A DNA stretch of 38,830 bases, from the IMG/VR virus record IMGVR_UViG_3300047282_000491, positions 1 through 38,830 of that record; one strand, given 5' to 3'. The translations under genes were made by a program, and so were the position numbers. This DNA comes from a virus. Lineage: Duplodnaviria > Caudoviricetes. Shown here one piece after another: positions 10,293-38,829 of this stretch. Below the pieces are notes generated by a model that was given only the letters and a program-made list of their open reading frames with translations, did not search any database and was not told the origin of the DNA. The number at the start of each line of letters is the position of its first letter. Within the stretch, counting starts at the first letter, position 1.

Positions 10293-10882
10293 ACCTGCTC
10301 CAGGCTTAATTTAACATTCCAAAATGGCTGTATTCCTCTTTTAACAACGCTAAACTCGCAAGATGTAAATACTACAGTGTATGTATTAGCAGAGGATTCC
10401 CAAAAACTAGTATCTTCCATATTTGCTGGACTGTGTGAAGTATTTATTTTAATTCTAAATGCTCCCCTGCCAGCTTCGCTCTCGTAAAATGTTTTTATGT
10501 CTTCTGCTGCCCATCCTCCATCTACAGTCTCATTTCTGTAAGATGGTAACATTGTCCAAGACAGATCCCATTGCTGTTTATCTGCGACAACATATTTTCT
10601 TAAAAGACCATTGGCCATTCTTTGAGATTGTTCTACTCTTAATGTTCTATTGCTAAACTCTCCACGATTATGCTCTGTAACTCTTCTAAACTTTAATAAA
10701 TTTTTATTTCCTTCTGTTAAATTATTTCTTAGTGCTACTGCTTGTAAATAATTTTGCCCGCCAGCTGCGGTGGTAGAGGTAGCATTTGGATATGTAAAAC
10801 CTGTAGATCCAATAGTCATACATAGTGGATCAATTGCTTCAATATAAAGTATTGAACCTTTTGGTAAATTTGTATATGACAT
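10289..10882 (-). CDS. Distal tail (Dit-like) minor tail protein
   Basis: 197 aa directly after the tape measure, with an RMANGLLR motif and a C-terminal WNVKLSLEQV strand. The call is positional. Confidence 0.65.
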   Translation of the reverse strand: MSYTNLPKGSILYIEAIDPLCMTIGSTGFTYPNATSTTAAGGQNYLQAVALRNNLTEGNKNLLKFRRVTEHNRGEFSNRTLRVEQSQRMANGLLRKYVVADKQQWDLSWTMLPSYRNETVDGGWAAEDIKTFYESEAGRGAFRIKINTSHSPANMEDTSFWESSANTYTVVFTSCEFSVVKRGIQPFWNVKLSLEQV

Positions 10883-13800
10883 TATCCTCTACCTACTCCA
10901 AGAGAAATTTCTCTTAATTGCATTTCTTTTCTAATTGCCTTTGCTACATCATTTGCATCAAGGTTTGTTCCGTTTAATTCTACATTTATATTATACAATG
11001 CATTTCCATAGTTTCTTCTATTTGGAGTAACCATACCGCCACCAGCGTACTTTACTGGGCCGCCCATATTATATCTAGGCATAGAAACTTTGCCTCCGAA
11101 ATTATATTTTGGAGTTAATATGTAGCCATTTCCTTGTACATAGCTACCTACTGTATATCTTTTACCATCTTGTCCTTCAATAACTTGACCAAACTTGATT
11201 CCCTTTTTCTTAATATCACTTTCATTTGCATATGATTTAGAATATGTAACTCCTCCATATGTGTAACTTGAACTCGTAACTTTTAATTTAGCTACAGGAG
11301 CGTTATCTGCCTTATCTCCCTTAATTGCAGCAACAACATCAGATAATTTTTTACCGCCAGCAATGCCAGTTACTATTAAATTAGCCTGTTGATTTACTAT
11401 TGCTAAATCTTTATTTAGTTGAGTATTAAGTTGTCCTTGGCCTGACATATAATTAAGATCTGAAAGATGTGATGGTTGACCCTTAACTGTAGTAGTTGGA
11501 GTAAAGTTTTTAGCTGCAGCTCCATTTGCAGTAAATGCCCAATCAAATGCTGATCTTATTTCTTTTCCTAAAGCTGTTTGCTTTAGGCCAGCCTTCTGCA
11601 AATCTGCTATAAATGTATTTATAGCTTGTTGATTTTTCTGTAATCCCTCATAATTATCTGCAGATATAGTTGATCTTTCTCTTAGTAAAGCCTGATAATC
11701 ATCAGAATATTTTTGAAGCGCAGCTGCAGTTTCAGCAGCATTTGCAGCACTATATTGTGCATCTTGGAAATTTTGTGTTTGTTTATTTTGAGATGTCTGA
11801 ATGCCTTCTATTTGTGTTTGTATAGGCTTCTTTTTCTTTTCAGCAGCGTCAGTTATTGCTTGCTCTGCAAGCGCAGCTTGACGATCTTTTGTTAATTGTT
11901 GAATATCTAATTGTGCTTTTGCTGCTGAAGCGCTGTCTCCACGAGCTAATGCATCCTGATATTCTAACTGTAATTTTTGAAGTTGCAGTTGATAATTTTC
12001 TTTTTCTTGTGTTGCTCTTAATGCTTTTAATTTTGCATCTGCTTCATCTTCAATTAATTTAATTTTTTTATTTAATAAATCAATTTCTTTTTGAGCATTT
12101 CTTTGTGATATTTGAGCTGCTCTTTGTGCCTTAGCTCCAACAGCATCTTGTATTTTTTGTAATCTAGATAATGCTGAACCAATTTTTCCAAATGTGCTAT
12201 CTGTTCCTCCAGCTTTTTCTAACTTAGTTACAGCGCTATCAAATGCTGAATTCCAAGCAACTAAGGCTGTGGCTGTTTCTGAACTCATATCTTTTAGTTC
12301 AAAATTTGTATTTTGTACATATAGTTGCCATTTAGCAATAGATCCACCTATTGTATCTGTAGCATTTAAAATACCTTGCAATTCTTTTGGTAGAGCTCCA
12401 AAAGCTTTTACACCTATCTCTGTATTAAATCCAGACATGCTGGACATTTCTTTCATAACTGTATTTAATGCCATAGCTTCGTCTATTACTTCACCTTCAG
12501 CATTTTTTGTTCCAATTAAAGATTTTACTGCACTATCGGCATTATTCATTAAATAAGTAAATCCTTCAGTCATTTTAATTCCGAACTGATCTCCAGGATT
12601 ATTTATTTCATCTCTTAGTTGTTTAAATAATTGTCTTGCAGCACTTGCTCTATCTGTCATATCTCTAAATCCACTATTTGAGAAAACTCTAAATGCTTTA
12701 TCTGCATGGTTAGACGCAGCAACCATGCCAAGAATTGCTTTATTTGTTTCTTCAACAGATTTACCAGCACCTAACATTTGAGCTTTAATATTAAGCATTA
12801 AAGGAACAAAGTTTGAATCGTCCGCTCTATTCATAGTTTCAATTAATTCGCCAAATTGTTTTTTAGCACTTTCTGTTAATTGAGCCATTTCTTCTGGTTT
12901 CATCATTAAACCAGGAACACCTGTCATTCCACTAAATCTACTTGCATTTGCTGCCGCATTTGCTGCATTAATCGCTTTCATTTTTTCTGACAAATCTATG
13001 TATTGTATTCCTAATTGTTCAGCAGCCTTTTTAGTCATACCAAATCTATTTGTAGCATCCTGATTCCAGTTATCCATTAACTTTCTAACAGCAATAATTG
13101 CAACAGTTGCTGCTGTTAATGCGCCAGAAAATGCTAAGAATTTTGCAGGGCTAAGGAATTTAAATAATAAAGATGCATTTCTAGCCTCTGCCATCCCAGT
13201 TCCAGCTTTAGATGCCGCCCTCATTGCCATTAAGTTATTAATACCCTTAACTGCTGGACCCATCATGAATGGTAATGTTGATCCTGCTACCATAGCAACC
13301 ATTCCTGCTGTTTGTGGATTCATTCCTAAATATCTCTTTGATGGGTCTTGCTGCATTAATGCCATTCCGCCAACCTGACTGCCCATCATTAATCCCATTT
13401 GAGTTCCCATTCCCATTTGGAAATTTTTTCTATAACCCAATTCAGCAGCCTGTGCTCTTGTTATTGACTTAAATGATCCTTCAGCAGTACCTTCTCCTGG
13501 AACAAACTGCATATATTCATTTTTACGAAGACCATATATTCCAGCAGCTTTTCTTTGATAAATTCCACGATCTTGATCTACAATTTTCCAAGAAGAAGCA
13601 TATCTTCCAGCTTGACGCATTGCATCTTTACCAATTCCTTGTTGACCCAATAATCTTGCAAGTCTTGACTGCTGGAATCCTGTGCCTAGATATTTACCTT
13701 CTGAATCATAATTAGACATAAGAGAAATTGTTTCATATGCTTTAGTTCCAGTTAAGTTCCCAAAAGCTGGCAATGGTCTTCCCATTGGATCTAAAAAGTT

Positions 13801-16800
13801 TCTACCTGCTAATGCTGCTGCAGCCGCATTAAATCTATTACTATATGTTGGAATAGTAGCAACTTCTCTTCCATAAATTTTACCTTTTCCAGGAACATGT
13901 ACTAATTCTCTGCTTCCAGATAATTTAGGGGGCTGGACCATAACCTTTGTCTGGTATAAAATTGCATGCTTTAATGCATTAAGTGGTTTTTCTAATTTTT
14001 CTGCTATCTTGTCTAATGCTGATATTCCTCTTGGAAACATATTTCCAATTTTTAATGCATTTACCATTTCCAAAGATCCTGGATTCCATGACGAGACTAA
14101 TGCATTACCTCTAACTACGCCACCCTTTTCGCTAAATCCTTGGTAAGGAACCTTATCTACTGACATTGGTGCAAATGTTTCTATTCCCTTACGAGCAAAA
14201 GGATTACCAATTGCTAGCATTTCGTGATATAGTTTTGTTCCTAATAATGGAATTGATCTTGGAACAGTTCTTATTTGTCCAGTAGGATCAAACGTAGAAT
14301 AGTGAGGGGAAGGTTTTACTACAGATGTAGATTCTCTATCTATTAAAAGATTTTGTCTAGCTTGTTCTCTAACAAGTTTTGCCTCATCCCTTGCCTTTAT
14401 CTGATCAGCTCTTACTTGTGGATTTCCAGATCTTACTCCACGGTTACTCTTGCCATAAGCAGTTCTACCTGGAACAACAATTCCACCACCCATATTAAAT
14501 CCTGGTCTAGACCATGGTGTTGATATTCCTGTTCCGTCGATTCCTAAAACTTTACCAACACTATATCCTTGAGGAATTCCAAGTCTTGATTGTGCTGTTA
14601 TGAAATCATTTTGGAAGTTTCCAGTATTTGGAATTGTTACCTGTTTTGTACCAGACCAACCTCTTCCAGACATTTCAAATGTCCATGTATCAAATTTACC
14701 TTTCCTTGATGGATCATTGTATGATTTTAATATATTTGCTACAGTTAGGTCTCTTCCAAGTAATGGAGTTTTTGATAGTCTACCTGCCATGAACTCTTGT
14801 CTTCTGGCAATCATTTGAGAAACTCCGCCACCAAAACTAAATCTAGGAACTCTTCTTCCTACCATTCCGCCTCTGTTATATTTTGGAGCAGAATGTAAAG
14901 AATGATAATTACCCCAATTAACTTTCATTCCATCGTCAAATCTTTGTAATAACGCTAAATACGGACCTCTATCTGATTCAGGTATTGATTCTATAAACTT
15001 TAATAATTTTGGACGCATTGATTTCATAGCAGATTTCATTTTTGCATCATACTGTCTAGGTGTCATTTTCTTTGCTACTGAAGATGTATTATGTGCAAAA
15101 TCTTTTCTAGCTCCTCCACGTACTCCAAGTAAATTAATTAATGCCTGTTGTTCCATAGAATGCATATTTGTAGCATATGCATTATTCATAGAAGCTCTAG
15201 AAAATACACCTGCTGGACCAACGTCTGCTAATACATTTCCAAATACATTTGTTTTTGATAAATCCTTATTGCCCATAACTAAAGAAGCAATTGTTTGTCT
15301 TATCATTTGATCTTGAGTAAATTTAGTGCCGCCCGCCGAAAATATAGGATTGAATGGAGATTCAAGTCCAAGCAATTTAGACTTACCTGTTGGATCTAAC
15401 GGATTTCTAATTGTTCTAATTGTTTGTATTGGAGAATCTAATCCAAATACTTCTCTCGCCATTCTAGTTCCATACATTTCCGCCTTAGCAGATATCTCAT
15501 TTGGAACCCCTTTAAAGAATACTAAGTCTCCATTTTCATTTTTATATAATCCAGAAACTCCAGGAATTGGGAAACTCTTACCCGAGCTTGGGGCTATTTG
15601 ATGACTATATCCAGCAACTGGCATTTTAGCAAAGCTTCCTAGCGCTTCTTTGCTAGACATTTGTTTTGCTTGTTTTAAAATATTTAGCATACTGCTAGCA
15701 TTAATTAAACCTATTGGATTACCGTAATATCTTTTTCCTCTTCCAATTGGACCGCCATAATTTGCAGCCATAGCTGGGAATAATGTTCTTACGTTTCTAG
15801 CACCACCAATACCTTGCAAATATTTTTTACCAGGCTGCACTATTTGTCTAAATATTTGTGGAAGCGATGTTATGCCCATAGATTGCATAGCAATTAAATC
15901 TTGCATGCTAAACCCAAGATTTTTCATCAAAGACTTATTGTATATGTCTAACCCTCTATCTGATTTAATTAATTGATCTGGATATAAACTAAATCCTCTT
16001 AAGCTTTCTGGAACTTCATTTCTACGGAACTGAAGAGTTCTACTTAATTGATTTGAGGCTTGATTAATATCATATTCTCCCCACATTGCCTGTCCATAAT
16101 TCCCTCTAGCTCTATAATTCCATGTTGCTTGCGGAAGAGTATGCTCAGTGACCATTCGTTGACCAAGTCCTGCTAAATTAATATTTCCTTTTTTATCTAG
16201 AATGCCTAGAGATTTAAATATTCTTTGAACATGGGCTTTGCCGCCTAAAGAATCTGCATTATCTAATAAAAACTTAATAGTTTTTTCATTTGGTAAAACT
16301 GCTGGAGTTCTTGGGGATATAACTCCTAGTCTGCCTTGTAATTCTTTATCTAATAATTTAAATTGAGCTTCCCTATTTTGTTTCCACAATTTATTATTTA
16401 TTGATCCAGTATATGGGCCAGATGTGTATAGTGATGCTTTTGCCGCATCATCAAAATCTTTAGTTGCACGTGCAAGTGCCAAATCTCTTGGCAAGCCTCT
16501 TTCTGATAGTATCGTGGCATCATGCATAATAGATCTAGCTCTATATTCTGCTCCCCAACCTAATTGTCCAGTTGCTGAATTTATGCCACCAGAAGCGGTT
16601 CTTGCTCCAACATATCTTCTATTTATCATATTTAATCTAGAAAATGCTGACCAGAATGGCATGCCATAAGTTTTAGTATTTCTCATAATCTGTCCGCCAA
16701 AATTATATCCATTGTTAGCTGCATCTACTGCTTCATATAAGCCTGGAATTTTATGAATATTTGGTCCAAATACTGTTTCTTTTGGAGTTAATGCTGCTGT

Positions 16801-19716
16801 TATTTCTCCACCATCATTATATGTAAGTGGTGCCATTGCAACCAAATCTCTATTTGATGGATTTAAAGATGCTGATTGATTTAATACATACCCTCCGAGT
16901 GGCACCGATCCTAGTCTATCGTCATAGCCAATAGAAGAAGGCCCTGAGACTTGTGTTTTATTTGGCCCAAATGATTCTATTTCTCCGTAGTTAGGTCTAG
17001 AAAATACAATATCTCCGCCTTGTTTAAATCTTGGTATTCTAGTTGTATGTATACTATATGGAGCGCCGAATGTTCTAATGCCACGAAGTCTACCAAATTC
17101 TTCCATGACAGCCTTATTGTTTTCTTTTTTGTATAAATCTCTTAATGTAAATTGGCCGCTAGCATCAACAACTGGTTGATTCATTAATGGAGCTTTATAA
17201 AAATCAATTGTTCTTCCACGTGCTCCTGCATACATGCTAATTTCAGACATTAACGATTGTTCTAATTGTGCATTAACCGCTAATATTTGTGCCTTAGCAG
17301 TATCAACTGTTATTTTACCTGCACGTAACTCAGCAACAATTGCAGCTGATTGAGTTGCAGCATTTTGACTTAATCTAGATGTTATTGGCAATATATCATC
17401 AAAAGTATCTAGCAACTGAGAACTGACTGTTCCACCTAAAGCAATTGTTTTCTTTAATGCTGCGACTTCTGCTTCTGTTTGCATACCTAGCGTAGCCATT
17501 AATGCATGGAATCTAGCAGCTTCAGAAGCAACTATACCAGTAGATACGCCTTTTATTGCAGTAACTCCTGGAACATGTGGAAGAGCATCGTCCATATATA
17601 TTTGCATATTTCTTCCAATTGCCTGATTAACTGGAGTTGCGCCTGGAACTCCTCCAAATATTGAAGCAGGTCTTGCTGGATCTCTTGGAATAATGTGAGA
17701 CATAGATCTTGTATCTTTTGCACCAGCATAAACATTTGTTGGATCTACTGTACGTCTACCCATAATAGGATTGCCCATGGGTGTTGTTACTGTTGGATTT
17801 AATGGGATAACTCCACCAACCATGGCTTGCTGTAATGTTCTATAATCTGTTACTAATTTCGTTAATGCCCCGTGTAATACTTCTGCTGCAGCTGCATCTG
17901 AGTAAAAAGACTTTTCTACCATTTGTGCTGCTTTTTCTGCAGCTATCATTTCTGGTGTAAGCATCTTCCAGCCACGCATTCCCATGAAGAAAGATCTTAA
18001 TGAAACTATTCCTTTAGTTATATATCCAAAGAAGTTGGCTAAAACACCAGTCAACATAATTATAGGACCAATTACTGCAGTAAATCCTCCAAGATAAGTC
18101 ACTGCCTTTTTAATTGGATCTGGTAAATTATTAAAAAAGTCTAATACCTTTGTAAATGCATTAATAAATTTAGTTGCTACGCCTAAAAATTCTTCACCAA
18201 CATCTGCAAGACTTGCTCTTAATCCTTCAATAGCTCTTCTATACTTACCAGATGCTGACTCCGTTACTAAACTTAATTCTCGACCCGCTACATCTGCTAA
18301 TTGAGAAGCACTAGCATTCATTAAATTCATAACCTGTAAAGTTTGACTTCCTTCTTTACCTAGGTTATTGAATAGTGCAGCCATTCTAGCAAATTGGAAT
18401 TTACCAAACATTTGCTCTAGCGCTCTTGCTTTACTTAATGGATCTAAGCCATCTAAAGCCTTTTGCAAATCCATAATCATTGCAGTAGTGTCTCCAGTAT
18501 TTCTCTGAACCATACCCATAATATCAATACCAAAATCTGACATTACTCCGATTGTTTGCTTTGTTGGATTAATCATAGATGCTAAACCAGACTTTAATGC
18601 GTTTGCTGCTTCTGAAGCATTAACTCCACCTTCACGCATTGCAGTTAAATAAAGAGCAAGATCTTCTACACTTCCGCCTAATTGTTTAATAACAGTACCA
18701 GCTTTTGGAATTGCTTCTACAAGGTCATTTAGTGTTGTTGATGTTTGGTTTTCTACTGCGTTTAAAAAGTTAATTGATTCTGTTAATTCTTGAGTATTTG
18801 ATTTAAAGGCTGTTTGTATAGCTAACGTAGCCTTCATGGCTTCAGCTCTATCAACTTCACCCAAAACAGCAAGCCTTGTTGTTTCCTTTAATGAGCTTAA
18901 AAGCTGATTTCCTTGCTGTCCTGTTGCTGCAATATCAGCAGCTAATCCAATTGTTTCTTTAAAAGATACACCCATAGCAGAAGACAATTCTTTTGCTGTT
19001 TTTGTTACATCTTGTCTAATTTTTTGTAAATCTGTAGAAGCTGTTCCAGATATATCTCCATACACCTTAACTAATCTTGTTAATTCTTGATCTGCTTCTC
19101 TAAATGCTTTTGCTGCTGCCGATCCAAACATAGCCATAGGAACGGTTAGGCCTACTGTTAGCTGACGACCTGCCCATTGAGTATTTTTACCCCAGTTAAT
19201 TAATGCTGTAGATCCTTGAGCTAAAGCTCTATTCATAATCATGGTTTCCATGTTAGCTAGCTGCATCTTGCTCTTTACAGCGTCTAGCCCTCTTGGAATC
19301 ATTACATTGTATTGCATTAAACCTTGAGCATTTCTACCCAAAGGTTGTAGAATAGAATTTTGTAACATGACTTGCTCTTTAGCAAGTTCTCTCATCATAC
19401 CGCCAGTAGTAGAAAGATGAGTTCTAAATGTTTGGAAATAGTCTCTAAGCTTTAATCTTCCTGCATCTAAATTTTTACCAAATTTATCTACATCTGATTG
19501 TAAGTTGACGAAATGACTTGAATACATTCCGCTTTTAGTAAGTGTGTCTCTAAAAGCATTTTGTGCAACTTTAGTAGAAGCTGCTATAGATTTATTTGAT
19601 GTAAGTAATTCTCTTTGTAATTGTTGTAAACTTGCTGTAGCCCTGTGTACTTCAGACACAAGGCTTGACAAGTCAGCTTTGGCGACTATACTCGTTACAA
19701 TTTGTTCGTCAGCCAT
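10882..19716 (-). CDS. Tape measure protein (TP901-family core) with inserted cargo domains
   Basis: 2944 aa following the tail chaperones. The N-terminal region is a phage tape-measure core (LTVGLTVPM, LNAVENQT, GVNASEAANALKS). It also has hydrophobic TM-like segments and a C-terminal coiled coil. Confidence 0.95.
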   Translation of the reverse strand: MADEQIVTSIVAKADLSSLVSEVHRATASLQQLQRELLTSNKSIAASTKVAQNAFRDTLTKSGMYSSHFVNLQSDVDKFGKNLDAGRLKLRDYFQTFRTHLSTTGGMMRELAKEQVMLQNSILQPLGRNAQGLMQYNVMIPRGLDAVKSKMQLANMETMIMNRALAQGSTALINWGKNTQWAGRQLTVGLTVPMAMFGSAAAKAFREADQELTRLVKVYGDISGTASTDLQKIRQDVTKTAKELSSAMGVSFKETIGLAADIAATGQQGNQLLSSLKETTRLAVLGEVDRAEAMKATLAIQTAFKSNTQELTESINFLNAVENQTSTTLNDLVEAIPKAGTVIKQLGGSVEDLALYLTAMREGGVNASEAANALKSGLASMINPTKQTIGVMSDFGIDIMGMVQRNTGDTTAMIMDLQKALDGLDPLSKARALEQMFGKFQFARMAALFNNLGKEGSQTLQVMNLMNASASQLADVAGRELSLVTESASGKYRRAIEGLRASLADVGEEFLGVATKFINAFTKVLDFFNNLPDPIKKAVTYLGGFTAVIGPIIMLTGVLANFFGYITKGIVSLRSFFMGMRGWKMLTPEMIAAEKAAQMVEKSFYSDAAAAEVLHGALTKLVTDYRTLQQAMVGGVIPLNPTVTTPMGNPIMGRRTVDPTNVYAGAKDTRSMSHIIPRDPARPASIFGGVPGATPVNQAIGRNMQIYMDDALPHVPGVTAIKGVSTGIVASEAARFHALMATLGMQTEAEVAALKKTIALGGTVSSQLLDTFDDILPITSRLSQNAATQSAAIVAELRAGKITVDTAKAQILAVNAQLEQSLMSEISMYAGARGRTIDFYKAPLMNQPVVDASGQFTLRDLYKKENNKAVMEEFGRLRGIRTFGAPYSIHTTRIPRFKQGGDIVFSRPNYGEIESFGPNKTQVSGPSSIGYDDRLGSVPLGGYVLNQSASLNPSNRDLVAMAPLTYNDGGEITAALTPKETVFGPNIHKIPGLYEAVDAANNGYNFGGQIMRNTKTYGMPFWSAFSRLNMINRRYVGARTASGGINSATGQLGWGAEYRARSIMHDATILSERGLPRDLALARATKDFDDAAKASLYTSGPYTGSINNKLWKQNREAQFKLLDKELQGRLGVISPRTPAVLPNEKTIKFLLDNADSLGGKAHVQRIFKSLGILDKKGNINLAGLGQRMVTEHTLPQATWNYRARGNYGQAMWGEYDINQASNQLSRTLQFRRNEVPESLRGFSLYPDQLIKSDRGLDIYNKSLMKNLGFSMQDLIAMQSMGITSLPQIFRQIVQPGKKYLQGIGGARNVRTLFPAMAANYGGPIGRGKRYYGNPIGLINASSMLNILKQAKQMSSKEALGSFAKMPVAGYSHQIAPSSGKSFPIPGVSGLYKNENGDLVFFKGVPNEISAKAEMYGTRMAREVFGLDSPIQTIRTIRNPLDPTGKSKLLGLESPFNPIFSAGGTKFTQDQMIRQTIASLVMGNKDLSKTNVFGNVLADVGPAGVFSRASMNNAYATNMHSMEQQALINLLGVRGGARKDFAHNTSSVAKKMTPRQYDAKMKSAMKSMRPKLLKFIESIPESDRGPYLALLQRFDDGMKVNWGNYHSLHSAPKYNRGGMVGRRVPRFSFGGGVSQMIARRQEFMAGRLSKTPLLGRDLTVANILKSYNDPSRKGKFDTWTFEMSGRGWSGTKQVTIPNTGNFQNDFITAQSRLGIPQGYSVGKVLGIDGTGISTPWSRPGFNMGGGIVVPGRTAYGKSNRGVRSGNPQVRADQIKARDEAKLVREQARQNLLIDRESTSVVKPSPHYSTFDPTGQIRTVPRSIPLLGTKLYHEMLAIGNPFARKGIETFAPMSVDKVPYQGFSEKGGVVRGNALVSSWNPGSLEMVNALKIGNMFPRGISALDKIAEKLEKPLNALKHAILYQTKVMVQPPKLSGSRELVHVPGKGKIYGREVATIPTYSNRFNAAAAALAGRNFLDPMGRPLPAFGNLTGTKAYETISLMSNYDSEGKYLGTGFQQSRLARLLGQQGIGKDAMRQAGRYASSWKIVDQDRGIYQRKAAGIYGLRKNEYMQFVPGEGTAEGSFKSITRAQAAELGYRKNFQMGMGTQMGLMMGSQVGGMALMQQDPSKRYLGMNPQTAGMVAMVAGSTLPFMMGPAVKGINNLMAMRAASKAGTGMAEARNASLLFKFLSPAKFLAFSGALTAATVAIIAVRKLMDNWNQDATNRFGMTKKAAEQLGIQYIDLSEKMKAINAANAAANASRFSGMTGVPGLMMKPEEMAQLTESAKKQFGELIETMNRADDSNFVPLMLNIKAQMLGAGKSVEETNKAILGMVAASNHADKAFRVFSNSGFRDMTDRASAARQLFKQLRDEINNPGDQFGIKMTEGFTYLMNNADSAVKSLIGTKNAEGEVIDEAMALNTVMKEMSSMSGFNTEIGVKAFGALPKELQGILNATDTIGGSIAKWQLYVQNTNFELKDMSSETATALVAWNSAFDSAVTKLEKAGGTDSTFGKIGSALSRLQKIQDAVGAKAQRAAQISQRNAQKEIDLLNKKIKLIEDEADAKLKALRATQEKENYQLQLQKLQLEYQDALARGDSASAAKAQLDIQQLTKDRQAALAEQAITDAAEKKKKPIQTQIEGIQTSQNKQTQNFQDAQYSAANAAETAAALQKYSDDYQALLRERSTISADNYEGLQKNQQAINTFIADLQKAGLKQTALGKEIRSAFDWAFTANGAAAKNFTPTTTVKGQPSHLSDLNYMSGQGQLNTQLNKDLAIVNQQANLIVTGIAGGKKLSDVVAAIKGDKADNAPVAKLKVTSSSYTYGGVTYSKSYANESDIKKKGIKFGQVIEGQDGKRYTVGSYVQGNGYILTPKYNFGGKVSMPRYNMGGPVKYAGGGMVTPNRRNYGNALYNINVELNGTNLDANDVAKAIRKEMQLREISLGVGRG

Positions 19717-31338: not shown

Positions 31339-31953
31339 TCATTTCCAAACTGTTTCCATTGGATACCAGAAGAATGGTATCATATATTTATCGCCTTCTG
31401 TAACTGGCATTGGATGATGGGTATACGGTCTATAAGACGGAAACATTACCATGCTGCCAGCCGACGGTTTAATTTTAATATTTTGATTTTTAAAATATAT
31501 TTCTCCGCCAGTATAGCTATCATTTAAATATAACACACCAGAAATTACTGGGTGAGATTTATCTGTTGGATCTTCAGCATCAACATGCTCTCCCATATCA
31601 ACAGAAGTATCATACTTTCTTATACTAAAATAATCTGGTAGTTTTAAAAAATTACAATTTGTTTCTTTCATATAATTTGCAAAACATAAATCAGAAATAG
31701 CTTTTATTTTATAAATTAGTAAAGATGTTTCAATATCTTCTTTTGTATTATACTGCATAGAAGAAAAGTTTCCATTTTTTGTAATACCATACTTTTTGTT
31801 TTCATTGCTAGCATTCCATTCAGACCATTTTGAAAGCTGGTTAATATTATTATTTATTAAATCTAATTCTTCTATTTTATCAATAAAGTTTTTTGGAAAA
31901 TCTAAAACATTTTCATAATAAATAATATTATCATCTAATTTTTTTATATGCAT
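31339..31953 (-). CDS. 2OG-Fe(II) oxygenase, prolyl 4-hydroxylase-like
   Basis: HVD, YLNDSYTGGE, KPSAGSMVMFPS, distal H and a KY 2OG-binding position. Confidence 0.9.
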   Translation of the reverse strand: MHIKKLDDNIIYYENVLDFPKNFIDKIEELDLINNNINQLSKWSEWNASNENKKYGITKNGNFSSMQYNTKEDIETSLLIYKIKAISDLCFANYMKETNCNFLKLPDYFSIRKYDTSVDMGEHVDAEDPTDKSHPVISGVLYLNDSYTGGEIYFKNQNIKIKPSAGSMVMFPSYRPYTHHPMPVTEGDKYMIPFFWYPMETVWK

Positions 31954-32785
31954 TTTTATCCTTCATAAAAAATGGAGTAGATCTATCTAGCTTGGGGTCA
32001 ACCTCGTCTGGCTTAACTAAATACTTATGCCACTTACCAGAATGTATTTCTTCTTTCATCCTTTCAGAGTCCATCTTTTCCCATTCGTCTCCATACTTTT
32101 CTTTGTTTGCATGCCACTCTGGAGTACCCTCAAAATCATATGACCAAAAACATCTTATAAAATACTTTTCTCCGTTATCAACACGATCAACGCCATGGAA
32201 ATAATGCGATGCACCAGTTATTGGATCTCCAGATGGAAATATAACTATATCTCCAGCCTCTGGCTTATAGTCTATTACCTCGCCAGAATCTTCTTTTAGG
32301 AAAGACAGGCCTCCGCCGTCATAGTCATCATTTATATAGATAGTACATGTTATTGCATATTTTTTACCTGGAGATTCTGCATCAAAACCTCTATAATCTG
32401 TATGATAGTGCATTGCCATTTTATTCTGTTCTGGGCTAATCCAATATTTACATATTGATATTCCATTATTTACCCAATTTGGTAATTGAATACTATTTGA
32501 CATAACATAGTCTGCGGTACATGCATAATATGCGTCTGTTATAGCTTGTAAAAAATCTTTTTGTAGCAATGCATATTCGTCATCTGAATCTACTTGATAT
32601 GGATCTCCTGGATTATTCATTGGCAAATTCATCATTGTTCCAAACCCATACCAGTCTGACCATTCTTTAAAAAAATGTTTTGGCTCTTCTTTTTCAGATT
32701 TTCTTAAAAGATCTGTATATTCTTTATGTTTAGGCAGTGTGTTTTTATATACAGTAACTCTTGGATATATCTCTATCTTATTCAT
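31931..32785 (-). CDS. 2OG-Fe(II) oxygenase, prolyl 4-hydroxylase-like
   Basis: HTD, YINDDYDGGG, KPEAGDIVIFPS and HGV..GEKY motifs. Confidence 0.9.
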   Translation of the reverse strand: MNKIEIYPRVTVYKNTLPKHKEYTDLLRKSEKEEPKHFFKEWSDWYGFGTMMNLPMNNPGDPYQVDSDDEYALLQKDFLQAITDAYYACTADYVMSNSIQLPNWVNNGISICKYWISPEQNKMAMHYHTDYRGFDAESPGKKYAITCTIYINDDYDGGGLSFLKEDSGEVIDYKPEAGDIVIFPSGDPITGASHYFHGVDRVDNGEKYFIRCFWSYDFEGTPEWHANKEKYGDEWEKMDSERMKEEIHSGKWHKYLVKPDEVDPKLDRSTPFFMKDKNAYKKIR

Positions 32786-33501
32786 CTTTCACCATTTTTC
32801 CCTATATACTCTTGTATAATTCCCTTTTCTTTTTCCTCTGCCCATTGCTTATAAGTTAAATCTTGTTCGGCTCTTGTTTTCTTTAGTCTTTCTTCTCTTT
32901 CTTTTACCTGTTCTTCTGTGTAAGTAGCATCTGCATTATCCCAGAAAGAGCCTATTGTGTATCTTGTTCCATTATGAACTTTTGTAACCTCATGTTCATT
33001 TGTATATCCTCCAGCAAATATAGCTATCATTCCAGGCTTAGGATGTATCTTTACATCGTGATTCTTAAAGTTCAAATATCCACCCTCAAAAGTATCATTT
33101 AAATAAATAAAAGCAGCATATTTACTTCTTTCAAATTCTGATGGGTTTCCATCTTCATCCGAATTATCTGAATGAAAAGAAGCATATGCCCCGTCAGTCC
33201 ATTTTTGTGCATGATAACTAACTTCTGCAACTTCTTTTCCTAATACATTCTCACAAGCTTCTTTTATTTTTGGCTTTAAAATATCATGGAAATAATTTTG
33301 AGGCAATCCAAAGTATTGTAAACTTGGATCATATGGCCAAAATCCCATAGCAAAAGAATCATAAAAAGAAATTTGATTCCACTCTAATATATTATTTTCA
33401 ACAAGCCATTCTGTATATGCAATGATAGCATCGCATTCATGTTTACTTAAAAAATTATCTATTGAAAAACATTCTTCTTTATATTTAGTTATTTGAGACA
33501 T
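32782..33501 (-). CDS. 2OG-Fe(II) oxygenase, prolyl 4-hydroxylase-like
   Basis: HSD, YLNDTFEGG, PKPGMIAIF and HEV..GTRY motifs. Likely start is ATG 33501 (track start 33522). Confidence 0.9.
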   Translation of the reverse strand: MSQITKYKEECFSIDNFLSKHECDAIIAYTEWLVENNILEWNQISFYDSFAMGFWPYDPSLQYFGLPQNYFHDILKPKIKEACENVLGKEVAEVSYHAQKWTDGAYASFHSDNSDEDGNPSEFERSKYAAFIYLNDTFEGGYLNFKNHDVKIHPKPGMIAIFAGGYTNEHEVTKVHNGTRYTIGSFWDNADATYTEEQVKEREERLKKTRAEQDLTYKQWAEEKEKGIIQEYIGKNGER

Positions 33502-34204
33502 TAATAAAATCCTTTGGACCATTCCATTTTTCTGGCAATTTTGTTATTGTCCAGAAATACGGTGTAGTGTATCTACACCCTTTAAGGATAGGTCTAACTC
33601 CGTGAATATAATTCATATCACCAGGAAAGAAATACCCTGCACGTGCTTTTGGTTTAAACTCTACTCCTTGTTTTGGAAAATAAAGCTCTCCGCCTTCGTA
33701 ATCATCATTTAAATAAAAAACAGTTCCAATATCGTACCATGGAAAAGAATTAGGCGTCCCAGCGTCTGGGCCTTCATGTAGTTCTTTATCTGCGTGAGGT
33801 TCTTGTCTAGCGCCAACTGGCCATCGTACAACTGCTGGGCCAGTACATATTACTTCTACTTCAAAAAAATTTTCTATTATTTTTTGAAATCTATCTGTAA
33901 TATTTTTTAATATTGGTATTATATGTGATCCATTTTTTACTAAAGTTTCGCCTGTAGCTACTCTATTTACCCAAGGCCTTTCATCATATATTACAGTTCC
34001 ATTTTCATTATACTCTGTTGGAGGGTCGTCAAAAGATGAGTTATTACTTGCAAAATTTATTAATATATTTTGCTCTTCTTCTGTGATAAAATTTTCCACC
34101 TCTACAATATTTTTATCAGAATTTCCAAAAAATCCAGAGGGAGTAATAGATTTAGCATTATAATTTGCCATATTACCGCTAGTATCTAGCTTCATCATAT
34201 TCAT
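33485..34204 (-). CDS. 2OG-Fe(II) oxygenase, prolyl 4-hydroxylase-like
   Basis: HAD, YLNDDYEGGELYF and HGV..GCRY motifs. Likely start is ATG 34204, overlapping the upstream TAA. Confidence 0.9.
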   Translation of the reverse strand: MNMMKLDTSGNMANYNAKSITPSGFFGNSDKNIVEVENFITEEEQNILINFASNNSSFDDPPTEYNENGTVIYDERPWVNRVATGETLVKNGSHIIPILKNITDRFQKIIENFFEVEVICTGPAVVRWPVGARQEPHADKELHEGPDAGTPNSFPWYDIGTVFYLNDDYEGGELYFPKQGVEFKPKARAGYFFPGDMNYIHGVRPILKGCRYTTPYFWTITKLPEKWNGPKDFINVSNN

Positions 34205-34908
34205 TAATCGTACCTCTTTCTTGACCAAACTGTTTTCTTGTAAGCCCCACCTTCTGGAACTCTAAATTTATTAGCTTGATATTGATGTCTTTCAAATATT
34301 TCTTCTTGAGAATACATTCGTTCATTAGAATCCCATTCTTCTCTTTTATATGGAATAATTTGAACATACGGAGTTCCTTTTGGAATTAATCCGAGAAACC
34401 CTTCCTTTAAAAAGAATGGCATTAGACCAGGTGTATCCATCTTATCGTTATCAATTATACCAGACACTGTAACAAATGGTAAATCAAATCTATTTAGCGG
34501 GCTAACGTATAAAGCACTATATCCGTCTTCTAAACCTGGCATCCAATTAGGGTACCAATGGAAATGTTTATCAAATCCATTTGGTTTTGGAAATCCAACC
34601 ATATCTGGACGAACTCCACAAAAATCTTCATATCCTGGCTCTGTCCTAGGAATAACTAACGTATTACCATCTGGATCTATAATTTCATAAAAATAAATAT
34701 CACATGGAGTCTTAAGCACATAACCAGATAAGAACGCATCTACTAAAGCTGGGCATGCTTTAAAAGACAATGTATCTTTTACTTCTGGAAACCAAAATCT
34801 GCTTGACTGCGAAAACCATTCTGGTACATTTTTCTTAGCGGCGGACGGGTTTAGATATGAGTTTTCTTTATTATATATTCTATTTGAATGAAATGTTATT
34901 TTAGGCAT
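34204..34908 (-). CDS. Hypothetical protein, DUF6065-related / dUTPase-like fold
   Basis: FKACP..D..SGY N-terminal motif. GIIDND and IPKGTPYVQIIP resemble dUTPase motifs III and IV. Confidence 0.55.
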   Translation of the reverse strand: MPKITFHSNRIYNKENSYLNPSAAKKNVPEWFSQSSRFWFPEVKDTLSFKACPALVDAFLSGYVLKTPCDIYFYEIIDPDGNTLVIPRTEPGYEDFCGVRPDMVGFPKPNGFDKHFHWYPNWMPGLEDGYSALYVSPLNRFDLPFVTVSGIIDNDKMDTPGLMPFFLKEGFLGLIPKGTPYVQIIPYKREEWDSNERMYSQEEIFERHQYQANKFRVPEGGAYKKTVWSRKRYD

Positions 34909-34909
34909 T

Positions 34910-35599
34910 TTATATAACCTTTAATCTTATTGCTTTAACTTCATGTTCACCTAAAGAATTTCCGCATGCATCTACGGCATCTCTATAAAAATTTGTCCAA
35001 CCGCCATTATCAGTCGCTTCTTTAATTTTTTTCATTGTAGTATTTTGATCACAATTAGTCGATGGCATTTCGTTAATATTTACAAATTGTATTTCAGAAT
35101 TTTGTAGATTAGTTAATGAAATGGGTATAATATTTGCAACTGGGGTATTGGCTGGTATTGTAATTTTAATCATTGGCTCTACAATCTTCCAAACGATTGG
35201 AAAGTCTCCGTGAAAAAATGATGTTGTTATTAATGTTGTAAAACACTGGGCTCCACGAATAAACATATTTGGAGTAGGCATACATAACAAGCTTAAATCG
35301 TTATCGGTTTTAAATCCAAGCCCTGCGTTAAAGCTTATTGTTCCATTAGCTCTTCTAGTAGAAACATATTTATCTCCAGACAAAACTTTTACATGTTCTG
35401 AGGAACTGTCTGAAATTCCATCCCAAACAAATGAAATTTCTTCTGGAAAAGAAATGCTCCATCCTAAAGAATTAGTTAAAGTTACTGGGAAACAGTTATA
35501 GGCATGCCTATCATATGTATGTTCCATCCAATCTCTTTTAACAGAAGATGGCGCAATGTTTCCCAGGTCATTTAATTTAAAAGCTTTAATATTATACAT
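34910..35599 (-). CDS. DUF6065 family protein
   Basis: RDWM..HAYNCFPVT.TN.LGW signature, plus IPANTPVANIIP and W..FYRDA. Confidence 0.75.
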   Translation of the reverse strand: MYNIKAFKLNDLGNIAPSSVKRDWMEHTYDRHAYNCFPVTLTNSLGWSISFPEEISFVWDGISDSSSEHVKVLSGDKYVSTRRANGTISFNAGLGFKTDNDLSLLCMPTPNMFIRGAQCFTTLITTSFFHGDFPIVWKIVEPMIKITIPANTPVANIIPISLTNLQNSEIQFVNINEMPSTNCDQNTTMKKIKEATDNGGWTNFYRDAVDACGNSLGEHEVKAIRLKVI

Positions 35600-36297
35600 T
35601 AAAGTAGTGAACCAGAATACTTTGCCTCCAGATTTCTATACTCTGGAGTATGAGCTGTTTCTAAATAGTCCAACATTGTTACAATAGAATACTTTGTTCC
35701 TGAAGTAACAGGCATTGCTGCATGTGAATATATGTATGACGAAGGAAATAAATAAAGATCTCCTGCTTTTGGCTTAATTGTTAGTCCGAGCTTATCAAAA
35801 TATAATTCTCCTCCCTCGTAGTCATCATTTATATAACCAACAAGAGATAAAACACAAGTATATGAATAACCGTGATCTGAATGAACTTGAAAATGCTGTC
35901 CTTCATTATATCTGATAAAATTAAAAGATTCCCAATATTTTAACGGCGCTATGCCAAACATATTTCTATAGTCATCAACTGCAGGAAGCTGTGCATAATA
36001 AGCATCTTGCCAAATTCTAATTAAATTTCTGTCTAAATCATCTTGATCTTCTTTTTTAATATTATCAGTATGTGCAGAAAGAGATTCATCTTCATTAAAT
36101 TTAATTTTAAAATCTACGCAATCTCTATATTTTAAATTTTTTGAACCATATCCTGTGTATCCTGGCTTCCAGCTGTATTTGACATTATCATCAGATCCTA
36201 GAGCCTTTTCTAATCTCTCTATATAATTATCTTCTTTTTTAAATACGTCTCTATAGACCATTATTCCTGTTGCTAAATATTCTGCATTTGGTAACAT
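35599..36297 (-). CDS. 2OG-Fe(II) oxygenase, prolyl 4-hydroxylase-like
   Basis: RYNEGQHFQVHSD, YINDDYEGGELYF, KPKAGDLYLFPS and HAAMPVTSGTKY motifs, with a GAGGA SD. Confidence 0.92.
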   Translation of the reverse strand: MLPNAEYLATGIMVYRDVFKKEDNYIERLEKALGSDDNVKYSWKPGYTGYGSKNLKYRDCVDFKIKFNEDESLSAHTDNIKKEDQDDLDRNLIRIWQDAYYAQLPAVDDYRNMFGIAPLKYWESFNFIRYNEGQHFQVHSDHGYSYTCVLSLVGYINDDYEGGELYFDKLGLTIKPKAGDLYLFPSSYIYSHAAMPVTSGTKYSIVTMLDYLETAHTPEYRNLEAKYSGSLL

Positions 36298-37440: not shown

Positions 37441-38829
37441 TTATAGTGGTCCTGATCCATCTGGATCGTTTGATCCAGAGAGTGATGATTCTAGAGGGTG
37501 CATATCAAATGTCAATCCATTTTCTGTAAAATAAAAGTCGGATGGCTCTACGTTTATAGAATAAGATTGAATTGTAATATCTAAATTAATTTCTAAAGAT
37601 TCGATTGGTACAAATTCTTTAGTTTGATAATTGTATATTAAATCAGTGTTTTGCAATGTGTGAGTAAACAATGATCTAATCTCTCCATCTCTTTTACCAA
37701 GAATTAGATGTTTAATTGTATATATATCTCCATTTACAGCAACTGCACCAACAGTTTCGTGTAACTGTTTTGCTACAACTGTTACTACTGTTTCAGTTGC
37801 ATTTTCTATTTGCTCAGGAGTAAAAACAAAATCTTGAAAAGTTCCATAACTTCCATCGTCTAACAACAAGAAATTATCTGGAATTCCAGGTATTTGAAGT
37901 CCTATAACTTCATCTCCTAATTGAATTTGTCCAGCTGAAACCATTCCACTTGGTGTTCTTAATAAAGTATTTATGCCAACGCTTTTAGCAAATGATGGTG
38001 GGGAAAAGAAGCTTGGTGGTGCAAAGAAGCCTGGTGGGCCAAAGAAGCCTGGTGGGCCAAAGAAGCCTGGTGGGCCAAAGAAGCCTGGTGGGCCAAAGAA
38101 GCCTGGTGGGGAAAAGAAGCTTGGTGGGCCAAAGAAGCCTGGTGGGGAAAAGAAGCTTGGTGGGCCAAAGAAACCTGGTGGTGCAAAGAAGCTTGGTGGG
38201 GCAAAGAAGCTTGGTGGGGCAAAGAAGCTTGGTGGGGCAAAGAAGCTTGGTGGTGCAAAGAAGCTTGGTGGGGCAAAGAAGCTTGGTGGGGCAAAGAAGC
38301 TTGGTGGGCCAAAGAATGATGGGGCTTGAGTTGTTACAGAATTTGAATATCCCGAAAACGATCCTGAACCATTTGCATTTCTAGCTCTTATTCTATACGA
38401 TTGTGAAGTATTTGCTTCATTTGCTATCGTTGTGTTTCCTGATCCAGCCTGAGTTACTGTTTTTGTTTTTGGTGTTGCTTCATTTGATTCAATATAATAA
38501 TCAATAATTATTGATCCTCCATTTGCTGGAGCTGTCCAGCTAATGGTGTCTTGATCAACTCCTGCAGTTGCTGAAGGTGCAGACATTGTTGCTGGAACAG
38601 TAGTTGCAGTGGCAGTAGCAGTATTTGATGTAGAGGCAGAAGCATAAGAATCATATGCAGTTACTGTGTAAGAATAAGAAGTACCTGATGACAATCCAGT
38701 ATCAGAATATGTACTTGTAGGATGTGATACTGTTGCAATTTCAGTTCCACCTCTAATTATTTTATAACCAGTAGGAGTATTTCCTGTTGATGGATTTGTC
38801 CAAGATAAATCAATTCTTCCATCATTATA
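37441..38829 (-). CDS. FN3-domain protein with 18 FFxPP(S/G) repeats and a C-terminal Hint (intein-like) domain; 5' partial
   Basis: The frame stays open past 38694 to the window edge (YNDGRIDLSWTNP..GYKIIRG..YSDTGLSSGTSYSYTVTAY, an FN3 domain). A second FN3 reads ISWTAPANGGS..YRIRARNANG. Hint motifs are SVGINTLLRTPSG..IQLGDEV, TIKH and YSINVEPSDFYFTENGLTFD. Confidence 0.88.
   Translation of the reverse strand, partial: YNDGRIDLSWTNPSTGNTPTGYKIIRGGTEIATVSHPTSTYSDTGLSSGTSYSYTVTAYDSYASASTSNTATATATTVPATMSAPSATAGVDQDTISWTAPANGGSIIIDYYIESNEATPKTKTVTQAGSGNTTIANEANTSQSYRIRARNANGSGSFSGYSNSVTTQAPSFFGPPSFFAPPSFFAPPSFFAPPSFFAPPSFFAPPSFFAPPSFFAPPGFFGPPSFFSPPGFFGPPSFFSPPGFFGPPGFFGPPGFFGPPGFFGPPGFFAPPSFFSPPSFAKSVGINTLLRTPSGMVSAGQIQLGDEVIGLQIPGIPDNFLLLDDGSYGTFQDFVFTPEQIENATETVVTVVAKQLHETVGAVAVNGDIYTIKHLILGKRDGEIRSLFTHTLQNTDLIYNYQTKEFVPIESLEINLDITIQSYSINVEPSDFYFTENGLTFDMHPLESSLSGSNDPDGSGPL
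37993..38316 (-). repeat. 18 x 18-bp coding tandem repeat encoding FF(A/G/S)PP(S/G)
   Basis: Plus-strand units of the form gc(t/c)tggtgg(g/t)(gc/cc/ga)aaagaa over 324 bp. Confidence 0.97.

Follow-up and report, generated by a model that had tools for sequence, protein, structure and literature searches.

Why would a phage carry what looks like a kinase in the middle of its tape measure protein (TMP)? The question is raised by the virus record IMGVR_UViG_3300047282_000491, the whole of which, a window of 38,830 bases, was analysed here. A first-pass annotation had seen in its TMP gene a HipA/PI3-PI4-kinase-like segment, to be delivered with the virion as a kinase or a pseudokinase. We find that this TMP, which is of an actinophage type, contains an intact, selected and exchangeable domain that is predicted to be an atypical kinase and that would very probably be a working one.

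A kinase-like domain in the tape measure protein

The gene, the domain and its characteristic residues are located as follows (window coordinates).

10882..19716, minus strand: TMP gene, 2944 aa (P0001); open reading frame with Pfam and PHROG matches
14890..15708, minus strand: atypical kinase-fold cassette, aa ~1337-1609 (~273 aa); alignments, AlphaFold2 model and fold search
15544..15582, minus strand: Gly/Ser-rich loop, aa 1379-1391, with G1379 and G1389 in 138/138 and S1381 in 137/138; putative nucleotide loop; alignment
15511..15513, minus strand: K1402, putative equivalent of the beta3 Lys, 138/138; model and alignment
15478..15480, minus strand: E1413, putative equivalent of the alphaC Glu, 143/143; model and alignment
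15247..15273, minus strand: catalytic loop G1482-N1490, with D1485 in 148/149, N1490 in 147/148 and S1487 variable in the family; alignment
15217..15225, minus strand: D1498-V-G, DFG-like motif with a putative role in metal binding, D in 148/148; alignment

The gene was assigned as a TMP on basis of a match to PF10145 at aa 239-438 (E 7.7e-30), matches to the PHROG TMP families (best E 1.8e-111) and the position of the open reading frame (ORF) after the head, major-tail, tail tube and chaperone-position genes. All motifs quoted in the first-pass annotation were recovered in frame in this ORF: GVSGLYKNENGDLVFFKG corresponds to aa 1386-1403 (window 15508-15561), AKAEMYGTRMAREVFGL to aa 1410-1426 (window 15439-15489) and GNKDLSKTN to aa 1482-1490, at exactly the coordinates claimed for it (15247-15273). 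The LADVG of the kinase is found at aa 1496-1500; the same letters recur at aa 503-507, outside the domain. The location given for the domain was right and its start was not: the true start lies around 35 aa upstream, the domain being extended by two helices at aa ~1340-1362 (block pLDDT 81-96).

The sequence libraries are blind to the domain, as neither a Pfam family (E<=1), nor a PHROG family (E<=0.01), nor a meaningful PDB sequence match was obtained. A uteroglobin sequence match in the PDB (E 0.016), confined to the helical tail, was dismissed as chance. We do not consider the domain itself a chance resemblance, because the residues at five catalytic positions are invariant (121/121) and the fold search independently returns kinases.

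Predicted fold

The AlphaFold2 model of the domain, built on a 41-sequence alignment, reached a pLDDT of 88.7 and a pTM of 0.88. In a fold comparison with 48,161 PDB representatives the first 23 rows were all atypical kinases of the CotH/PI4K/CtkA/Fam20/HipA group, with Z scores of 11.2 for CotH (rmsd 4.2 A, 213 aa), 9.9 for PI4KIIa, 9.6 for CtkA, 9.4 for Fam20C, 9.3 for MavQ and 9.2 for HipA; a further fold comparison gave Z 11.7 for CotH and 10.8 for CtkA. These values are only moderately above the Z of 7-8 that is reached by models without a clear match, and the list of matches is uniform. The fold is predicted to be common to CotH, CtkA, Fam20C, HipA/HipT, PI4K-II, MavQ and LepB (PDB 5jda, 3akk, 4kqa, 4pu3, 4pla, 7m7a and 4jw1; Z 9-12 over ~180-215 aa). 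With the CotH/CtkA/HipA group the TMP kinase also has the residue order K...E...D-x-x-x-x-N...D-x-G in common, from which group it differs in its low identity (8-16%, at an rmsd of 4-5 A), the absence of a Pfam membership and the absence of the loop His. The five helices that follow the DxG motif in the model indicate that the helical C-lobe is kept.

The structure prediction, checked both with Foldseek and by comparison of PDB folds, is therefore kinase-like, as had been proposed. With respect to the narrower designation, assignment to the PI3/PI4K-HipA-CtkA-CotH-Fam20 group holds and HipA cannot be singled out within it: the model matches CotH, CtkA, PI4K-II, Fam20C, MavQ and HipA/HipT about equally (Z 9-12), with CotH and CtkA scoring as high as HipA or higher. 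At E<=1 neither the HipA Pfam models nor PF00454 (the PI3/PI4 lipid kinases) matched the domain, the latter being connected to it by the tie in fold scores and an Atlas value of 0.92 only. The nearest Atlas clusters were unnamed phage clusters (0.95), followed by PI3_PI4_kinase (38% of members), LepB_N and HipA_2 (0.91-0.92), of which HipA_2, at 0.91, is to be taken as a lead only.

Active site and selection

Conservation was followed in two sets. The close set of 121 rows was made up of the query and the best 120 of 241 matches, one of which is a truncated database copy of the query itself and 119 of which are other sequences. The distant set was drawn from 167 clusters (50% identity), of which the 150 listed were used, with no length limit; 14 of these representatives, mostly fragments, had a gap in at least one of the five positions and were set aside, which left 136. 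K1402, E1413, D1485, N1490 and D1498, the catalytic roles of which were assigned by order and secondary structure, are invariant in all 121 close rows, and all five are intact in 134 of the 136 full-length distant members, the exceptions being P0198 and P0270. The K/E/D/N/D residues pointed out earlier are thus kept among homologues. Loss of the catalytic Lys or of either Asp, which would mark a pseudokinase, was not found in the query, and these residues are kept in the close and distant alignments.

The pseudokinase option had been raised on account of the Ser that replaces the loop His. Across the family (n=148) this +2 position is occupied by S (55), Q (35), G (24), A (16), K (11) or H (4), and the loop consensus reads R-G-D-K-D-L-x-x-x-N, without a His. 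The signature of the RIO1 kinase, as it stands in the available part of PMC2564912, is D-L-S-E-Y-N, with a Ser at the same site of the loop. Since the site varies within the family and the RIO1 signature has Ser there, the Ser does not speak for an inactive enzyme.

The kinase domain is under purifying selection. For its core (aa 1375-1545) the dN/dS was 0.06-0.15 in all nine measurable pairs, as compared with 0.04-0.12 for the TMP core, values that are rough as synonymous sites are near saturation (pS 0.54-0.62); a tenth locus, which is truncated, was left out.

Distribution and exchange of the kinase cassette

The remaining parts of the TMP, to which the alignments described below refer, are the following.

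18403..19002, minus strand: PF10145 PhageMin_Tail core, aa 239-438; Pfam E 7.7e-30
18016..18105, minus strand: first hydrophobic stretch, aa 538-567, candidate membrane segment; Kyte-Doolittle 1.95
16693..17028, minus strand: conserved module with three [FY]xxGG motifs, aa 897-1008, ahead of the variable cassettes; sequence and alignment
15772..16674, minus strand: variable cassette 1, aa ~1015-1315, no Pfam family; Pfam scan and alignment
15721..15762, minus strand: upstream joint NYGG...YG, aa 1319-1332; alignment to kinase-less P0272 stops at aa 1328
14827..14880, minus strand: downstream joints YNRGG (aa 1613) and FSFGG (aa 1626); kinase-less P0274 can be aligned again from exactly aa 1613 onwards
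13600..14826, minus strand: variable cassettes 3 and 4 (aa ~1631-2040), with FNMGG at 1740 as the boundary between them, matched by no Pfam family; Pfam scan and alignment
13075..13149, minus strand: second hydrophobic stretch, aa 2190-2214, candidate membrane segment; hydropathy 1.84
11035..11106, minus strand: three C-terminal [FY]xxGG motifs, aa 2871-2894; sequence

A survey of related TMPs, which the first-pass annotation had recommended, indeed revealed relatives in which the insert is absent or swapped. Presence of the kinase was scored in the 120 TMPs that are nearest by their N-terminal region (of 5,153 matches): 112 have it and 8 lack it. Alignment to the kinase-less P0274 picks up again exactly at the YNRGG behind the kinase, and alignment to the kinase-less P0272 breaks off at the upstream joint. 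In P0107 the N-terminal part shows 80% identity and the kinase 50%, the latter in turn being 72% identical to the kinase of P0058, a member of another clade; P0279 and P0281 show 79% N-terminal versus 32% kinase identity, and P0279 retains the catalytic set. The cassettes that neighbour the kinase are far more variable than the kinase. Read from these alignments, the kinase domain is a movable cassette. A joint of the type xxNxGG is found at most 16 aa after the kinase in 136/136 close members, which share ancestry, versus 6.6% at random positions.

The kinase family comprises at least 167 clusters at 50% identity and is mostly TMP-embedded, as 113 of the 150 homologues listed match the TMP N-terminal region. 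There was no match to the kinase among 50,697 GenBank phage records, and a broad profile found none in the TMPs of two cultured Stanwilliamsviridae (Streptomyces phages); a cultured carrier was thus not found. A stand-alone form of the kinase was not established; there were four short matches, one of them P0126 and the others not traced. The loci L065 and L069 (same contig) have a TMP that is frameshifted in the N-terminal core, probably by an assembly error, and the short P0126 likely derives from them.

Some further observations concern the variation within the gene. Between the TMPs of L002 and the window the synonymous divergence is 0.38 in aa 230-560 versus 0.03-0.09 in aa 840-1315, a pattern that points to recent recombination inside the TMP gene. 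Variable cassette 1 shows an E-H...N...E-x-x-I-N pattern that is visible too in P0272, P0275, P0277 and P0280; it has no Pfam match, and we take it to resemble an HNH nuclease site. In distant relatives the kinase is followed by a HAD/PNKP-like phosphatase (E 1e-6 and 2.5e-4) or a weak nucleotidyltransferase match (E 0.23), located at P0265 aa 436-569, P0266 aa 1642-1775 and P0267 aa 1608-1703. By their sequence matches these are further cargo of a cytoplasmic type.

A predicted ADP-ribosyltransferase fold in the same slot

P0275, one of the 8 TMPs that lack the kinase, with an N-terminal part that is 82% identical, carries another domain at aa ~1300-1565, with an R, an S-x-S and an E-x-E. A search with the relative of this domain in L071 yielded 24 loci of a related clade; as several of these are near-duplicates or truncated, the figure does not give the number of events. 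The ORF could be aligned to the window TMP in 23 loci, with 44-56% identity in the N-terminal part, the other (L099) being a fragment without such a match, and in the 22 loci that contain the ORF start the domain begins at aa ~1300-1450. The broad kinase profile had no match in any of the 24 (best domain E 0.29). R94, S129-W-S131, E177 and E179 are invariant in the 20 loci that were aligned. The model of this cassette has a pLDDT of 75, and the top ranks of both fold searches contained only ADP-ribosyltransferases (ARTs) of the R-S-E type (Z 10.7; Foldseek E 1e-4). A Pfam or PDB sequence match was not obtained and the Atlas search was weak (0.88-0.90, low recognition); the identity of the cassette rests on its fold.

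The slot of the kinase is thus emptied, exchanged or filled with a domain of predicted ART fold in relatives. Because two unrelated enzyme folds that use cytoplasmic cofactors fill the same slot, it would appear to be a slot for host-modifying cargo, which is the best indirect evidence on its role. Given that some relatives carry a predicted ART in place of the kinase, the ruler likely delivers, by analogy, ready-made host-modifying enzymes at infection.

Position of the cargo and proposed role

The kinase lies between the two hydrophobic stretches of the TMP (aa 538-567 and 2190-2214). A conserved coiled-coil segment is present in 240 of 257 kinase-bearing proteins and in all 240 the kinase precedes it, with a hydrophobic stretch in between in 225; a profile made from the second hydrophobic region recognised only 148 of these 257 proteins, and hydropathy together with the coiled-coil marker was used for the rest. 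CHAP, LysM, lysozyme and OmpA domains occur in 10 of 12 relatives, which were chosen partly for carrying such domains. All of them lie C-terminal of the kinase, and in nine of the ten beyond the second stretch (P0007 has no second stretch at the threshold used). In phage T5, according to the available part of Linares et al. 2023 (PMC10038345), the TMP pb2 is cleaved and its enzyme part stays in the tail, is expelled first, perhaps refolds and is sent to the periplasm, and the hydrophobic segments of pb2 insert in the membrane; the same source describes cleavage of the T5 and lambda TMPs during morphogenesis and three modelled TMP copies for T5. By analogy with T5, the host envelope of which differs, the kinase would end up inside the cell.

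Based on the above, the following explanation is put forward. The domain belongs to the reading frame of the TMP and evolves under purifying selection. It has a predicted CotH/CtkA/HipA/PI4K-type fold with the five catalytic residues conserved, and its slot is one that in relatives is deleted, exchanged or occupied by a domain of predicted ART fold. It would travel unfolded in the tail tube and regain its fold once ejected, which is what has been proposed for the muralytic part of T5 pb2. The second hydrophobic stretch would separate it from the wall hydrolases, such that it faces the ATP-containing cytoplasm, where it may stay tethered or be cut free at the xxNxGG joints (putative cleavage). 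There it would phosphorylate host proteins before phage gene expression, blunting defence or redirecting the cell, and so do the same job as the ART of sister phages. We give this explanation, delivery with the TMP and action on host proteins at entry, on the cytoplasmic side, about an even chance.

Several results weigh against it. Foldseek versus the PDB was weak, with CtkA having the best TM-score of the kinase group (TM 0.44, E 8e-3), and its top rank was the PAN3 pseudokinase (E 6e-4) with a poor fit (TM 0.21, rmsd 19.6). The lipid kinases PI4KII, MavQ, LepB and Vps34 come within 1-3 Z of the protein kinases, and on these fold scores of a model protein and lipid kinases are not separable. 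In P0260 the kinase comes after an M23 peptidase, and weak GNAT matches (E 0.014-0.14) occur in the C-terminal part of P0276 and P0277; both blur the sorting of cargo into inside and outside. P0243 carries ART and kinase in tandem, which makes the two not strictly exclusive. As regards release at the joints, only 9 of 120 distant members have a joint behind the kinase (background 5%), the kinase of distant members often lies at aa ~730-1010, and the strict [FY]xxGG joint is present in only 30 of the 136 close members. The [FY]xxGG joints were ruled out as a family-wide boundary of the kinase, as they hold for the close clade only; as far as the sequences go, the joint is a property of the TMP of this clade and not of the kinase.

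Alternative explanations

The kinase might act in the producing cell rather than in the next host, for instance during tail assembly, with itself, tail proteins or late host targets as substrate, or be cut out and discarded. The TMP is, after all, a late gene product made in a cytoplasm that contains ATP, the joints flank the kinase cassette in the close clade, and cleavage during morphogenesis has its parallel in T5 and lambda. An assembly role is hard to reconcile with the 8 of 120 close TMPs without a kinase and with the two cultured Streptomyces-phage TMPs tested, which lack it as well. Furthermore, a late function would need no fusion to the ruler, yet the homologues listed are mostly embedded in a TMP (113/150), and discarding is at odds with the fact that the cleaved part of T5 stays in the virion. 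On balance we find a role in the producing cell unlikely.

A second possibility is that an active kinase is delivered at infection and has a lipid or small molecule as its substrate, most interestingly phosphatidylinositol, which would imply remodelling of the membrane or of a glycolipid precursor at the entry site. Actinobacterial membranes contain phosphatidylinositol, and an actinobacterial host is indicated (see below). The fold scores of PI4KIIa (Z 9.9-10.0), MavQ (9.3) and LepB (9.1) tie with those of protein kinases, and among the named Atlas clusters PI3_PI4_kinase (38% of members) and LepB_N come closest, at 0.91-0.92. Around the active site basic residues are retained (R at -4 in 140/148, K at -1 in 131/149), and the domain lies between two hydrophobic stretches. 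The highest ranks, however, are taken by CotH and CtkA, which are protein kinases; the +1 residue is Leu (143/148) and not the Arg of the D-R-H loop of the PI3K type; and the partner in the slot is an E-x-E ART, a class that modifies proteins. A lipid substrate is for these reasons distinctly unlikely. Extended further, the TMP would be a reconfigurable platform for two compartments, with wall hydrolases in the outer and a swappable kinase or ART in the inner one, and the kinase would be a phosphoinositide kinase that rewrites phosphatidylinositol at entry, a counterpart of MavQ and LepB acting on a bacterium; we consider this a long shot.

That the domain is a pseudokinase or an ATP-binding scaffold without phosphotransfer is improbable. 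It does lack a canonical GxGxxG and the loop His, and PAN3 heads the Foldseek list, be it with a poor fit; against this, the five catalytic positions are kept in 134/136, including members as distant as 32%, and S, Q, G, A, K and H all occur at the +2 site, which is Ser in the RIO1 signature.

A target other than the host interior, either at the wall side outside the cytoplasm or in eukaryotic grazers that eat infected cells, is very improbable: in spite of the 'Trojan horse' put forward (in the part of the source available) for VIP2-like ARTs of freshwater actinophages, which is a proposal and not a result, of secreted or extracellular kinases and effectors among the fold neighbours (CotH, Fam20C, CtkA, MavQ) and of the P0260 kinase after its M23 domain, copies per virion are few (three modelled in T5), ATP is scarce outside the cell and the kinase is, unlike the wall enzymes, N-terminal of the second hydrophobic stretch.

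Comparison with known systems

Known TMP cargo consists mainly of cell-wall enzymes. If the kinase is indeed delivered to act on host proteins, the ruler would contain an ATP-dependent host-modifying enzyme that is exchangeable with an ART, and the TMP would be a general route of effector delivery, like polyvalent proteins elsewhere. The kinase is not rare, given the size of the family in phages whose relatives carry WhiB, and as a compact, directly expressible unit of ~270 aa it would make early host shut-off by actinophages testable without culturing the host. Because Pfam and PHROG miss both the kinase and the ART cassettes, counts of phage kinases and ARTs that rely on annotation would come out too low.

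HipA has a His in its D-x-H-x-x-N loop, where the TMP kinase has Ser and only 4 of 148 family members have His; moreover, HipA is encoded in a toxin-antitoxin operon with HipB/HipS, whereas the TMP kinase is internal to a TMP and flanked by tail genes, with no antitoxin-like neighbour seen. The polyvalent proteins (Iyer et al. 2017, PMC5512222, as far as available) are likewise large and injected, and combine kinase, ART and GNAT domains that vary in the manner of cassettes. Their kinase, of phages of Verrucomicrobia-Chlamydia and Bacteroidetes, is without the C-terminal subdomain, whereas the TMP kinase keeps a helical C-lobe in the model, and the carrier here is the TMP itself, a term ('tape measure') absent from the main text of PMC5512222 in its available part. 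T5 pb2 (Linares et al. 2023, PMC10038345, available part) is likewise a ruler with catalytic cargo that is expelled and with hydrophobic stretches that insert in the membrane. An M23 domain is present in the TMPs of the Streptomyces phages Muntaha and LilMartin. In these phages and in T5 the cargo is muralytic and C-terminal; here a fold that depends on ATP is found in mid-protein and is exchangeable with one that depends on NAD. The Sle1-type effectors of actinobacterial contractile injection systems (Nagakubo et al. 2026, PMC13277306) similarly combine a TMP-like scaffold with interchangeable modules. They belong to a bacterial nanomachine and not to a phage, have a single C-terminal module, and the available parts of that source mention no kinase.

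No description of a kinase within a TMP was found in the literature searched, to which subscription papers and File S2 of Iyer et al. 2017, which could list such architectures, did not belong. Similar predicted folds were recovered from BFVD on other phage virion-type proteins (E 3e-5 to 4e-4, TM up to 0.5). Kinase-group folds were seen on portal- or ART-labelled phage and haloarchaeal tailed-virus proteins (A0A6J5S481, A0A6J5PWC9, A0A6B9L6W7, R4T6E8 and L7TJZ0), so that, as far as predicted folds can tell, atypical kinases linked to virions may form a wider class. Of these, A0A6J5S481 (a portal fusion), A0A6J5PWC9 and A0A6B9L6W7 (ART fusions) resemble the PI3K/PI4K-like fold and differ from the TMP kinase in having 11-16% identity, in being unannotated and in their labels, which are portal or ART and not TMP.

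Genomic setting and host

On its minus strand the window encodes a siphovirus structural module, with the gene order portal, maturation protease, capsid, adaptor, tail tube, chaperone-position ORFs, TMP and minor tail genes, which matches that of annotated Stanwilliamsviridae records. WhiB, a marker used for calling actinophages (PMC6802176, available part), is encoded in 5/5 near-complete related virus records (106-120 kb) with the same kinase, a finding that concerns these records and was not shown for the window itself. The nearest cultured TMPs are those of Stanwilliamsviridae infecting Streptomyces (~36% identity). Because of the WhiB genes in related records and these nearest cultured TMPs, the host is probably an actinobacterium. 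Phages of this type presumably live in freshwater. A scan of GTDB genomes with the kinase returned one locus (L073, CAZCDW010000001.1; 44% identity), on an 85-kb contig in a metagenome-assembled genome titled uncultured Bifidobacterium; this label was not used as evidence on the host, as a mis-binned phage is possible.

Elsewhere in the window, five ORFs on the minus strand (31339-34228 and 35599-36297) have H-x-D...H patterns, which we take, as read from the sequence, to be typical of 2OG-Fe(II) oxygenases. Finally, a 5'-open ORF on the minus strand (37441-38829) contains many tandem PP[SG]FF[AGS] peptide repeats after Ser/Thr-rich beta domains, and the stretch that follows the repeats presumably resembles the start of a Hint/intein domain.

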